Shown: positions 17,921 through 39,981 of the stretch, piece after piece
How the letters are laid out: each line of letters opens with the position of its first letter
Position numbering within the stretch: the first letter of the stretch is position 1
Origin: a virus
Lineage: Duplodnaviria > Caudoviricetes
Virus record (IMG/VR): IMGVR_UViG_3300001598_001791
Coordinates: 1-64,000 of that record
Reading direction: 5' to 3' (one strand)
DNA length: 64,000 bases
The notes under the pieces: generated by a model
The model's input: the letters and a program-made list of their open reading frames with translations, nothing else
The model's database searches: none
What the model was told of the DNA's origin: nothing
Translations under genes and position numbers: made by a program

Positions 17921-17965
17921 AAAATAATTGTATTATATATTGAATTCATTGGAGGTACTACATCG

Positions 17966-18880
17966 ATGAATACAGAGTTATTTAGTAATTTATCAGATCA
18001 AGAAAAAGAATATGTACTTAAAATTTTAGATGGTATTTCAAAAAATGATAACTCAGAATTAACTAAACTGTTATATGAAGATTATAGAGAAATACCTGTA
18101 GACATAAATACTTTTTTACATGATCCTTATTATTTAGGAAGAGGTTTGATTGATGGTGAGGGGAGATTTACTTTATTTCCTTATTGAGAGGAATTATTAA
18201 AGAAAATATACCCAGACCCACTGAAACCTGCTATATGTAATACATTAGCTCTTACAGGAGCTATTGGTATTGGTAAATCAACTGAAGCAGTAATCATAGG
18301 TATTTATGAATTATATAGAATGATGTGTTTAAGAGACCCATCAGTTTATTATGGTATCATGAGTACTGATACAATTTCATTTGCAGTTATTAATATTACT
18401 TTAGAGGCATCTAAGGGTGTTGCTTGAGATAAATTTCAAAATCTGATTCAATCTTCAGGATGGTTTATGAATCATGGAAAAATGGCCGGTATAAATAAAC
18501 CTGAATGAGTTCCTGATACTCAATATAAAATTGATTTAATTTGTGGATCTCAGCCAAGACATTTTATTGGTAAAGCATTATATTGGTGTTTAGATGGTGA
18601 TACAGTTATAGCTACAACAGATGGCAATAAGAAGTTAAGTGAACTAACTAATAAAATAATACAAGTGTTTACTATTAACGAAAAAGGTGAAGTTGTTGTA
18701 AGTGAAGAGTGCACAGTAAAACCTACAGCTGTAGAAGATATAGAATATCAAATAGAACTAGATGATGGTTCAGTAATAAAATGTACACCTACACATAAAT
18801 TTATGCTAAAAGATGGTTCATATAAGGAAGCACAATTTTTAACTGAAGAAGATGAATTATATGATGTGGAGGTTTCTTAA
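17966..18880 (+). CDS. terL: terminase large subunit N-terminal part fused to N-intein (Int-N, 97 aa from Cys at 18587)
   Basis: Walker A TGAIGIGKS; three in-frame TGA (18185, 18425, 18506); then intein block A CLDGDTVIAT and block B CTPTHKFM; TAA stop. Confidence 0.9.
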
Positions 18881-19567
18881 ATGAAAGTTATTAAAGAACA
18901 AAAGCATTTTGGCTATATTTATAAACTTACAATGATTCCCACAGGTAAAATATACATAGGTAAAAGAGAAAAAGATAAAATTGATGTAGGTTATTATGGG
19001 TCAGGCAGAGATTGAAAGATTGATCTTAAAAAATATGGTAAAGAAAATGTTAAAGTTGAAATACTTGATTGAGCAGATTCAAGAGATGAATTAAGAGAAA
19101 AAGAAGTTTATTGAATTAAGGAGTATAATTCTCAAAATAAAGAAATTGGTTACAATGTTCATAAAGGTGGTGCTGGTGGAAATTCATTAGGTGATACTGA
19201 AGCTTGAGCAGAATTGCATAGAGGTGAGAAAAATGGTAGATATCATATGCCTGTCAGTCAAGAGACAAGAGATAAAATTGGTGTTGCAAACTCAGGTAAA
19301 ATAAGATCACAAGAAACAAAAGACAAAATTTCAGCTTCAACAAAAGGTGTTCCAAAACCAAATGGATTTGGTGATAAAATAAGTGCTGCAAGAAAAGGTG
19401 TTCCAAACACATGAGCATGAAAATCAGTTCAATGTATAGAAACAGGAAAGATATATAAAACAGTTCATGATGCATCAATTGATACAGGTGCAACAAATAT
19501 CGCAAGATCTTGCAAATTAGGTGTGACATCAGGTGGTTATCATTGGAGATATGTAAATGAAAATTAA
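18881..19567 (+). CDS. free-standing GIY-YIG homing endonuclease with NUMOD3/NUMOD1-like repeats (228 aa, code 4)
   Basis: GYIYKL...KIYIG, YYGSG, E..WIKEY and GYN motifs; SQETRDKI repeats; six in-frame TGA. Confidence 0.85.
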
Positions 19568-21071
19568 ATCAATTAGAAGAACTAAATTATCTTCTTTAAA
19601 ACAATACTATGATGTCATTAATGCTAATCCATATAATAATTTTTTAATTAAAACAAATAAAAGTTATGTTTGTTCTCATAATTGCTTTATGGATGAAGTG
19701 AGTTTTCAACCAAATCAAGACATTAATCGTCAGAAGGAGAAGGCTACAGAATTAGTATCTTCTGCAACTGCACGTATGCAATCACGTTTCATGAGAAATG
19801 ATGTTAATCCTACAATTCTTGTAATGGCATCATCAAAAAGAACTGAACAATCATTCTTAGAAACATGGATTGAAAACAAAAAGAAAAATGATAGTAAAAC
19901 TACTATTGTTATAGATGAACCTCAATGGATTATTAGAGCAGATAAACAGTCTGAAAGAACATTTAAAGTAGCAGTTGGTAATAAATTTCTTGTATCAGAA
20001 GTACTACCCCTAGACTTAACAGAAGATGAAATTGGCTATTATAGAGAAAAGGGGTATAAAATTATCGATGTTCCAATAGGATACTATGAAACATTTATAG
20101 ATAATATTGATATTGCTCTTACTGATGTTGCCGGTATTTCAACTACTAGCATCAGTGCCTATATTTCTGGGGCAAGGCTATCACAAACAAAAACTGAGAA
20201 AATTGAGAATCCTTTTGTTAAAGATATTATTGAAGTCGGTGATGGTAAAGATGACTTACAACAATATTCCGATTTCTTTAATTTAGATAAAGTAGACCCT
20301 AAGATGAAATCAAAACCCTTATTTATACATCTTGATATGTCTCTTACTGAAGATAAGACTGGACTGTGTGGTGTGTGAATAAAAGGTAAAAAACCACCAC
20401 AAGATGGTGTTCCAGAGAGCCGTGAATTATATTATCAACTGTCATTTGTTGTGTCCATAAAGGCACCAAAAGGGCATCAGGTTTCATTTGAGAAGACAAG
20501 AAATTTTATTTATTGGCTAAAAAAACAAGGTTTCAACATAAAGGGGATAACCTCAGATACTTATGCTAGGTCAGGTATAGAACAGGATCTAATTTCAAAA
20601 GGATACAATTATGGGATACTGTCAGTTGATAGGACTAAAGATCGTATCTGCGAACCATATGAATACCTTAAAAACACTATATATGAGCAAAGAATACTAT
20701 TACCTAGATATGGAGTTAATTTACTGACTGAAGAATTGGTTGGCCTGAAGCGAGATAATAATTCAGGAAAAATAGACCATGACCCGTCTGGAATAAATAG
20801 TAAAGATAGTTCTGACGCCTTGTGTGGAGCTTTATGGACTGCATCCCAACATGCTGAAGAGTTTGCATATGACTTCGGTGAAAATGCCCAAGCTTTATTA
20901 GATTTTAATAATGATCTTGGAATAACTGAATATAATGAAGAATTTGAAGAATCTATAAAATTAGCTAAAAAGAAATCTTTATATACACAGAATGAAGATT
21001 CTAATTATCTTGATTTTGGGTATGGTATCCCGATGGAATTACCCTTTGAAGATGGAATAATGCTATTTTAG
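19557..21071 (+). CDS. terL: C-intein (42 aa) fused to terminase large subunit C-terminal part (code 4)
   Basis: MKIKSIRR...YYDV...SHN followed by C-FMDE (Walker B); nuclease motif IHLDMS; read-through of TGA at 20376; SKDSSDA motif near the C-terminus. Confidence 0.9.
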
Positions 21072-38655: not shown

Positions 38656-39981
38656 ATGCCATATATTAATATTAATGAAAGCGAAATTTCAACACCTTCA
38701 TTATTTGATGTGACTGAGAATACGGTATTAATTCCTATTTTATATGTAAGAAAATTAGAACTAGTTCCAGGTTCAACTGAATTAGAATATACAGAAACTG
38801 AAGTTCCTGCCGCTAAGTTGTATACATCGGCTACTGAGTTTAATAAAGATTTTTCAAGTGGCGGTGGCAAGAATGGGCAAGGCGCTCGATATATTTATTA
38901 TAAAGATGATGAGTCTGGTATTGATAAGTCCTATCTCATGGCTTATGAGTTATTACTAAGCGGATTAAACGTAGTGATCAAGCCAATTAAATTTGATAAT
39001 AAAGAATTGTGGGATTCTGCATCATTTCAAACAAAAATTACATATAATGCTGCCCTTATTAAAATAGCCAATGAAGTAAATGATGGTTTATTAAAAGAAT
39101 TTAATGATAGAAATAATTTTAATATTAAATTCCTTACCACTGGTGGCTACTATAATGTAAAAGTACCTATTGGATATGATGAAGTAAAACAAGAAATAAT
39201 TTATAGTAACCCATGTCTTGAGCTTGAAAGTATTGCTAATTCCAGACAAGATTGTGTAGCATTATTTGAATTTAAAGAATTTGATAATACTGATGATTTC
39301 TTAACATTACTTAATGATCAAAACCCTGGCTCGGGAAGTATTTATTCAACTGCTTTCTTCCCTTGGTGTTTATTTAACACTACTAAACAATCAAATATTA
39401 TAATGCCTGCATGCTTTGGATATCTAATGGCCTATGCTAATTCAATCCAAAACAATGCTAACTGGTTTGCTGCTTCAGGAGTTAACCGTGGTTATATCCC
39501 TAAAATGATTGCACCAGTAGTTGAAGTAGGTGAAGCATTTATGCATATCTTACAAGGTGACAATACAGGTAACAAATTAAGTTGTAGAGTTAATCCAATT
39601 ATGAATGCCGGTTCATATGGATATCGTATTTGGGGTAACAAGGTATATTATCCAACACCTGTTACTGAAAATCAATACAGAGAATATTTGAATGTCAGAA
39701 TCTTACTATGTGATATTAAGAAACAAATTTATCATTCTGCCATGAGAACAACTTTTGAACCAAATGATGATTTAGTTTGGATTAATTTCAAGAGCTTATG
39801 TAATTCATTATTAGATACAATGAAGAGTGGCCGTGGAATTAAATGGTATAAATGGGAAAAAGTTAAATCAGATAAATATGCTACTATTACTGCTAAATTA
39901 TGAGTTACACCTATCGAGGCAGTTGAATCATTTGACATCAGTGTCATATTAACTTCTGAAGAAGTAAATGTTACAGAATAG
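38656..39981 (+). CDS. contractile tail sheath protein (441 aa, code 4)
   Basis: WFAASGVNRG, VNPI, IWGNK, LNVRILL and FEPND motifs; reading TGA at 39901 as Trp restores the C-terminal VTPIEAVE.F.I strand. Confidence 0.85.

Follow-up and report, generated by a model that had tools for sequence, protein, structure and literature searches.

A large terminase gene interrupted by a canonically split intein and a free-standing GIY-YIG endonuclease gene in a phage that reads TGA as tryptophan

Layout of the terL locus and its genetic code

The large terminase gene (terL) on a 64,000-nucleotide (nt) stretch of phage DNA (the window; positions 1 to 64,000 of IMG/VR record IMGVR_UViG_3300001598_001791) is broken in two by a split intein, and a gene for a GIY-YIG endonuclease lies between the intein halves. 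Translation of the region with genetic code table 11 fragments it at TGA codons. Translation with table 4, in which TGA encodes tryptophan, yields three open reading frames (ORFs) on the plus strand, at exactly the positions given by an earlier sequence-only reading of this DNA. ORF1 (17966–18880, 304 amino acids (aa)) joins the N-extein of the terminase (TerL, 207 aa) to the N-terminal intein half (Int-N, 97 aa). ORF2 (18881–19567, 228 aa) encodes the GIY-YIG/NUMOD3 endonuclease, and ORF3 (19557–21071, 504 aa) joins the C-terminal intein half (Int-C, 42 aa) to the TerL C-extein, which starts with CFMDE. A script run on the table 4 ORFs bore out the lengths proposed earlier for Int-N, the GIY-YIG gene and Int-C.

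The three ORFs abut or overlap, again as the sequence-only reading had it. The ATG of ORF2 directly follows the TAA stop of ORF1 (18878–18880), and nothing but this stop separates Int-N from the endonuclease ORF. These first two ORFs lie in one frame, since (18881 − 17966) mod 3 = 0. ORF3 is read in a different frame, and its first 11 nt coincide with the last 11 nt of ORF2. Plus-strand Shine–Dalgarno-like sequences precede all three: GGAGG at 17951 before ORF1, GGAGG at 18868, 8 nt upstream of the ORF2 ATG, and GGAGA at 19545 before ORF3. This layout is real.

The reading of TGA as tryptophan is also real, because TGA falls on a tryptophan that is conserved in homologues from cultured phages using the standard code. 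The TGA at 18185 lies in FPY-W-EE in the window, and the homologues read FPFW in Bacillus phage vB_BceM-HSE3 (HSE3) and YPYW in Streptococcus phage vB_SagM-GXN1 (GXN1). ARAGORN found no tRNA gene in the 64-kb window, hence no TGA suppressor, despite the use of TGA for tryptophan throughout the window; the code assignment therefore rests on the conserved tryptophan positions. Across the three ORFs, 10 of 17 tryptophan codons are TGA, six in the endonuclease gene (where they make up 6/7) and four in the exteins. A count of in-frame codons gave zero TGA in each intein half, in agreement with what had been noted from the sequence, so the window copy should be directly expressible in E. coli. We set aside the idea that TGA density gates expression of the endonuclease apart from that of the terminase, as the TerL exteins also carry four TGA codons.

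The intein halves, their host protein and the endonuclease

Both intein halves display the sequence blocks of a class-1 intein. Int-N (18587–18877) runs CLDGDT...TPTH...LYDVEVS, with block A, CLDGDT, and its Cys1 at 18587–18604 and block B, T67-P-T-H70 (TPTH), at 18785–18796. Int-C (19557–19682) runs MKIKSIRR...CSHN, with block F, YYDVINANPYNNF, at 19605–19643 and block G, VCSHN, at 19668–19682. Judged by sequence, the class-1 intein residues are complete, comprising Cys1, TxxH, the block-F Asp (D19), H41, N42 and Cys+1. The split lies at the canonical position between blocks N4 and C2, with a stop after 97 intein residues and an Int-C that has its own ATG in another frame. Computed net charges of −13 for Int-N and +7 for Int-C confirm the charge complementarity that had been claimed. 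The Int-C segment has a GC content of 17.5%, against 29–33% in the exteins, Int-N and the endonuclease gene, though at 126 nt it is a small sample.

To gauge conservation, we aligned the window Int-N with 36 relatives (n = 37) and the window Int-C with 34 relatives (n = 35), all of them 46–81% identical to the window over the intein segments. Cys1 is present in 37/37 Int-N sequences, the block-B His is invariant, and the block-B Thr is kept in at least 90% of the 37. Among the Int-C sequences, M1, Y18, D19, N28, F29, S40, H41 and N42 are invariant in 35/35, as are Cys+1 and the Walker B Asp-Glu that follow. Int-N also aligns to the Int-N of the Npu DnaE intein (4lx3, E 0.007), with Cys1 and TxxH (TKDH) in register. 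We consider it very probable that the two halves form a genuine, splicing-competent split intein, and the function of the locus is probably intact.

A structural model points in the same direction, with a caveat. The modelled complex of Int-N and Int-C scored 0.73, whereas the highest of three controls scored 0.01; contacts agreed between runs at 96% or more, and the predicted local distance difference test (pLDDT) value of the partner was at least 72. The mark of 0.73 is reached by 58 of 80 solved complexes and by 2 of 110 mismatched pairs, counts that are rough, as they were obtained with author-made alignments. Split-intein complexes have already been solved, so passing this mark may reflect likeness to them and not independent evidence. 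The association of the halves is thus a prediction: the model shows a likeness to solved complexes and does not prove binding.

The host protein was identified from its two exteins. The N-extein (17966–18586) ends in ...GKALYW and contains the Walker A motif GAIGIGKST (18257–18283). The C-extein (19683–21071; 462 aa plus stop) opens with Cys+1 and the Walker B motif, CFMDE (19683–19697), after which come the remainder of the ATPase domain and then the nuclease domain. Pfam terminase models matched neither ORF1, ORF3 nor the intein-free relative P0122 (671 aa), and PDB sequence searches returned nothing meaningful for ORF3 alone or for a 29-sequence TerL profile, so that the terminase identity rests on tblastn matches to annotated phage genes and on a fold search. 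By tblastn, the N-extein matches the annotated TerL of Maribacter phage Colly_1 over residues 5–206 (E 3e-22). In the Colly_1 record, the ORF1 match ends at 39566 (residue 206) and the ORF3 match begins at 39567 (residue 42), the two pieces abutting. The C-extein matches annotated TerL proteins of Bacillus, Listeria and Rhizobium phages (E 1e-68 to 1e-40).

For the fold search, we built an AlphaFold2 (AF2) model of P0122 from a 29-sequence alignment (mean pLDDT 76.6). Its top Foldseek matches in the PDB are large terminases only, namely those of HK97 (6z6d, 6.5e-13) and T4 (gp17, 3cpe, 5.6e-9), with the Sf6 and D6E large terminases also among them. In the model, residues 206–214 form a beta-strand ending in the invariant D213-E214, and the insertion point of the window maps between W209 and residue 210. 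The intein thus interrupts the Walker B strand at a point three residues ahead of the catalytic Asp-Glu. The predicted spliced TerL is 669 aa long; intein-free relatives measure approximately 660–680 aa and read GRALFW[A/S/C]FFDE uninterrupted across the junction. The proposal of the sequence-only reading that splicing would rebuild a Walker B strand, ALYW-CFMDE, in a 669-aa product therefore stands, as to both the computed length and the site in the P0122 model.

The genomic setting agrees with this assignment. terL is single-copy in the 78-kb record, a T4-type portal gene lies directly downstream (E 8.4e-36), a prohead protease gene (S77) follows further on, and relatives keep the same head-packaging gene order. 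Walker A, Walker B, the TerL fold predicted for P0122 and the position in a packaging module together mark the window gene as a phage large terminase. Five relatives (P0016, P0089, P0114, P0139 and P0143) show an extra contiguous mini-intein within Walker A (LTG/CL..DT......HN/SIGIGKS; slashes mark insertion points), so both nucleotide-binding motifs of this TerL family are intein targets.

The gene between the halves, ORF2, appears by its motifs and family match to encode a GIY-YIG homing endonuclease that is free-standing. It carries a GYIY motif at 18911–18922, an IYIG motif at 18950–18961 and NUMOD3-type repeats at 19256–19390. It matches the homing endonuclease family phrog_314 with an E value of 6e-42, and in Pfam it passes the cut-offs of SegE_GIY-YIG (30 bits; cut-off 25) and NUMOD3 (23.3 bits; cut-off 20.4), with 19.2 bits against a cut-off of 22.6 for the general GIY-YIG model. 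Residues downstream that we take to be the catalytic Arg, Glu and Asn were assigned by eye against I-TevI. ORF2 is 58% identical to the GIY-YIG nuclease that is fused to Int-N in P0113 (locus L008) and, like terL, is single-copy in the 78-kb record.

Relatives, mobility and competing explanations

We then turned to the distribution of this architecture. A search with ORF1 gave at least 173 protein clusters, and we tallied the best 120 of them: 94 stop 12–47 residues past the block-B His (median 26; window 27), at least five run in frame into a GIY-YIG domain, at least five run into an HNH domain, and about four look contiguous. Among the best 120 of the 2065 matches to ORF3, 74 are intein-free TerL proteins, 40 are Int-C-TerL-C proteins, and four have a contiguous mini-intein at the same site. 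An architecture that turns up again in most of the top 120 ORF1-like clusters, and in 40 of the top 120 ORF3-like ones, is not the product of chance. All split relatives but one have residue 42 as the last of Int-C, the exception ending at 49. Intein-free alleles have Ala at +1 in 42 cases, Cys in 14, Ser in 11 and a different residue in 4. These relatives were drawn from protein collections; a pattern scan of IMG/VR with ORF3 found no relative.

The state of the site varies among relatives: some have an HNH nuclease or a GIY-YIG nuclease fused in frame, some a contiguous mini-intein, and in others the site is empty. In-frame fusions of Int-N to GIY-YIG or HNH nucleases occur in P0113, P0021, P0028, P0064 and a 541-aa ORF of L011. 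The closest split relative, L006 (ORF1 homologue P0002, 74% identical), has an HNH gene in place of the GIY-YIG gene. That gene is free-standing (L006:4417-5430), and HNH nucleases, free-standing as in L006 or fused in frame to Int-N, also occupy the same split site in P0064, P0030, P0069, P0079 and P0080. By eye, the HNH protein of L006 and the GIY-YIG fusion of L011 have similar C-terminal tails (...IYIYTFEG.DY.CRDDLMIILK...YVIDNL.WRLK), a likeness that suggests different catalytic domains on a common DNA-binding module.

Other interruptions were seen close to the intein site. At L008:1801-1950 and L009:5494-5760, the terL frame stops a few codons past the C-terminal intein junction (CFFDEIN-stop and CNFTDKEI..., respectively), and in L009 it resumes approximately 250 nt after the stop. 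These may be further insertions, possibly group I introns, right beside the intein. A search for such introns with Rfam gave no match at the gathering score in L008, L009 or L002, the last being the locus of Listeria phage LIS04 considered below.

One pair of metagenomic phage contigs displays the site with and without the cassette; this pair served for the comparison, as P0122, the closest intein-free relative, has no recorded contig. L011 (1895-5021, with the cassette) and L012 (3501-5516, empty) have the same gene order of CHAP peptidase, terL and portal, and their terL flanks are 95–98% identical for about 500–700 nt on each side. The difference between them is exactly Int-N, a GIY-YIG nuclease and Int-C, approximately 1.1 kb. 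The empty site in L012 reads ...TTCTGG TGT GGA CAA GAT GAG (FW/CGQDE), with Cys already at +1, and the intein-free terL sequence of this type around the site is TTCTGGTGTGGACAAGATGAG. Beyond these 500–700 nt, identity of L011 to L012 falls to 70–85% per side, a pattern that resembles a recombination or co-conversion tract.

The window terL may have a mixed ancestry. In a FastTree phylogeny of 119 C-exteins, a fast method applied to only the top 120 matches, intein presence requires at least 16 changes, and well-supported branches force 10 of them. The window sequence is sister to P0122 in a clade of 29 members, and every other member of that clade is intein-free. Its C-extein is 79% identical to that of P0122 and 66% identical to that of L006, whereas its N-extein is closer to L006 (72%) than to P0122 (67%), and its intein halves are 76–79% identical to those of L006. 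The N-extein and both intein halves are thus nearest to the L006/P0002/P0123 lineage (72–79%), which carries HNH. Judged by these identities, the window terL looks mosaic, consistent with acquisition by recombination. That the cassette arrived recently by horizontal transfer and was not inherited within the clade is, in our estimate, an evenly balanced proposition. If it did so arrive, one split-intein site in TerL would be a common landing pad. Unrelated nucleases of the GIY-YIG and HNH types, whether encoded separately or fused to Int-N, would take each other's place there, recombination having its breakpoints at the intein, and this phage clade would be a natural system with every stage of the intein life cycle.

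These observations fit a model in which the terL of a T4-like phage with TGA as tryptophan is a ‘fractured gene’, with a mobile cassette lodged in the codons for the Walker B strand (ALYW/CFMDE). The cassette would be a class-1 intein, divided (97 + 42 aa) at the canonical point of endonuclease insertion, with the GIY-YIG gene in the split. Three products are predicted, namely TerL(1–207)-Int-N from ORF1, a free endonuclease from ORF2 and Int-C-TerL(C) from ORF3. The acidic Int-N and basic Int-C would associate into a Hint fold, and trans-splicing would proceed through an N–S acyl shift at Cys1, attack by Cys+1, cyclisation of Asn42 and an S–N shift. This would yield a TerL of 669 aa in which the Walker B motif, required for packaging, is whole. 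During co-infection, the endonuclease may cut intein-free terL, and repair would then copy the whole cassette into the cut gene; the exact gain or loss of the cassette between L011 and L012 lends such cutting indirect support only. Splicing, co-transcription and the endonuclease target are the inferred steps of this account. We hold the account as a whole, a split-intein terL with a homing endonuclease that is joined by trans-splicing, to be highly likely. The core of the sequence-only reading, a fractured terL with a canonical class-1 split and a GIY-YIG gene between the halves, is supported by the ORFs, motifs, conservation and models.

Several points count against this account. ORF1 scores 23.1 bits (E 7e-5) with the Pfam Intein_splicing model, below the curated cut-off of 35.8, although a low score is expected of a half domain, and the contiguous relative P0170 itself reaches 34.8 bits. 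Similarity to characterised split inteins is weak, the DnaE match noted above being the best. The record is a metagenomic fragment estimated to be 47% complete, so a second terL elsewhere is conceivable. The three ORFs probably share one transcript, to judge solely from their abutting and overlapping ends. A scan for promoters and terminators was uninformative on this point: promoter-like sites were rarer than in shuffled sequence, and between the ORFs there was no convincing plus-strand terminator.

The intein halves might instead merely hold two TerL fragments together, the two-piece terminase working without a peptide bond. Genes split by homing endonucleases without inteins can indeed give active enzymes, as is reported for the NrdA of phage Aeh1 and cited in Dassa et al. 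2009 (PMC2677866), and our complex model shows association only. Yet it is the Walker B strand itself that is broken, three residues ahead of the catalytic Asp-Glu, and a Hint fold of approximately 140 residues would stay wedged in the ATPase core. Moreover, 35–37 diverged sequences show little or no variation at the residues needed only for splicing (Cys1, TxxH, block-F Asp, terminal Asn, Cys+1), a pattern unlike that of a module that merely dimerises. We regard assembly without splicing as improbable. Decay is less probable still: here, terL would be an inactive remnant in a defective or fragmentary phage genome, neither spliced nor used for packaging. The incompleteness of this metagenomic contig would suit such a remnant, but the three ORFs are intact without frameshifts, none of the intein catalytic residues, the two Walker motifs or the core motifs of GIY-YIG has been lost, and the exteins are 67–79% identical to full-length intein-free TerL proteins over their whole length.

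The TAA at 18878 deserves separate consideration, as a sequencing or assembly error there would fuse TerL-N-Int-N to the GIY-YIG protein and leave Int-C-TerL-C as a separate ORF. ORF1 and ORF2 are in frame and one codon apart, and in-frame Int-N-GIY-YIG and Int-N-HNH fusions exist in relatives. On the other side, an end 12–47 residues past the block-B His is also seen in 94 of the best 120 ORF1 relatives, and ORF2 has its own ATG right after the stop, with GGAGG upstream of it. We consider an erroneous stop to be unlikely, and it would leave the main conclusion unchanged, as the intein is split either way. The sequence-only reading had held that such an error would yield one contiguous intein of Int-N, endonuclease and Int-C; the fusion of Int-N to the endonuclease would follow, but the contiguous intein would not, because Int-C lies in a different frame. 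Since ORF3 is in another frame than ORF1 and ORF2, a contiguous GIY-YIG intein would need two independent sequence errors, read-through of the TAA plus a frameshift at 19557–19567, and we rejected it.

Significance and comparison with known systems

The locus is best described as a class-1 intein with a canonical split that interrupts TerL at the Walker B strand and encloses a free GIY-YIG gene, an arrangement that was published in 2009 and is common in related phages; nothing here alters what is known in kind. For phage biology, it adds another essential single-copy packaging gene that is predicted to depend on protein trans-splicing, and it shows the heavy load of selfish elements in such genomes. 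Protein engineers could find useful reagents in inteins that, like this one of 97 + 42 aa, have a canonical split and strong charge complementarity, and dozens of natural orthologues are available. For intein evolution, the relatives include empty, contiguous, split, nuclease-fused and nuclease-swapped alleles, along with a near-identical pair with and without the cassette, and this set supports the 2009 gene-breaking model better than the single window locus does. The remaining interest therefore lies in the family as a source of split inteins and in the unusually complete evolutionary intermediates among the relatives.

Alleles of this intein are already present in cultured phages, and the earlier description of a new intein at the Walker B site was overstated. 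Allelic split inteins occur in HSE3 (gp054/gp056), GXN1, Bacillus phage SP-15 and LIS04, well over 100 metagenomic protein clusters have them too, and GIY-YIG fractured genes, including a terminase, appear in PMC2677866. The cultured-phage alleles share both the split point and the insertion point with the window (...VF/CLTG... and ...VVHN/C[AG][ML]LDE), and their Int-C halves start with MKV or MKG and end in HN. Their TerL proteins belong to the same family, at 35–39% identity. None of the four has the GIY-YIG gene of the window, and all use the standard code. As these are infectious phages, packaging in this TerL family is compatible with the split arrangement. Within the literature we searched, of which our coverage is incomplete, no paper names a canonical-split Walker B TerL intein family.

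The individual alleles also differ from that of the window. In HSE3 the halves flank an ORF of 90 aa that is not a nuclease, and GenBank labels its N-half only ‘intein splicing region protein’. In GXN1 (PQ819873; L003:1209-2147 and L004:1578-4184), the TerL split-intein halves lie approximately 60 kb apart, and the unannotated C-half ORF appears to be interrupted within the nuclease domain by a second intein, itself with an endonuclease-like insert (...PNS/CLVEDT...). LIS04 appears to have a further endonuclease-bearing insert upstream of Int-N. There (L002, OQ999172, 1011-3134), the annotated TerL-N ORF ends early (...SHGLGERKAG-stop) and is followed by a 314-aa endonuclease gene, and the frame resumes at ...RDIF/CLTGDS... 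(Int-N), upstream of the annotated start of a ‘Hint domain protein’. The interruption resembles an insert that carries an endonuclease gene, possibly an intron, and it lies only a few codons upstream of Int-N.

Two other groups of split inteins and one group of nucleases offer further points of reference. The cyanobacterial DnaE inteins (Npu, Ssp) are likewise class-1 and canonically split, with an acidic Int-N of approximately 100 aa, a basic Int-C of approximately 36–42 aa, and Cys1 and Cys+1. Npu DnaE (4lx3) is the best PDB sequence match of the window Int-N, by a marginal similarity. The DnaE halves, however, lie far apart in the genome without an endonuclease between them, and in a different host protein. 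AceL-TerL and GOS-TerL are naturally split inteins in metagenomic phage TerL genes, but they are atypical, splitting after about 25–37 N-terminal residues and leaving a long C part, unlike the canonical 97 + 42 aa of the window. The Seg-type and I-TevI-type GIY-YIG nucleases of T4-like phages share their layout with ORF2: the GIY-YIG catalytic domain is N-terminal, NUMOD3 repeats come next, and a DNA-binding module forms the C-terminal part. Annotated Seg-like endonucleases of T4-like phages are approximately 31% identical to ORF2 over 93–98% of its length. ORF2 differs from them in being lodged in a split intein, not between genes or in a group I intron, and in being written with its six TGA codons for tryptophan.

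The closest precedent is the set of fractured genes that Dassa, London, Stoddard, Schueler-Furman and Pietrokovski described from ocean metagenomes (PMC2677866), in which split-intein halves surround a free-standing gene for a GIY-YIG or Vsr-like endonuclease. Their loci gp41-1, gp41-8, NrdJ-1, IMPDH-1 and NrdA-2 have N parts of 88–105 aa and C parts of 33–54 aa with opposite charges, and coding frames overlap in some of them. The sole terminase locus of that study is split atypically, with a C part of 122 aa. Later work added a fractured PolB in the cultured phage MIJ3 and surveys of terminase inteins in actinobacteriophages. Sequence similarity of the window intein to NrdJ-1 (8ubs) is weak (E 0.039). 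The fit to the fractured-gene model that the sequence-only reading had proposed is borne out under the 2009 definition, ORF2 lying between ORF1 and ORF3 on the same strand. The window shares with those loci two same-strand ORFs, a break between N4 and C2 and a free-standing endonuclease ORF between the halves, and differs in its host, a large terminase interrupted at the Walker B strand.

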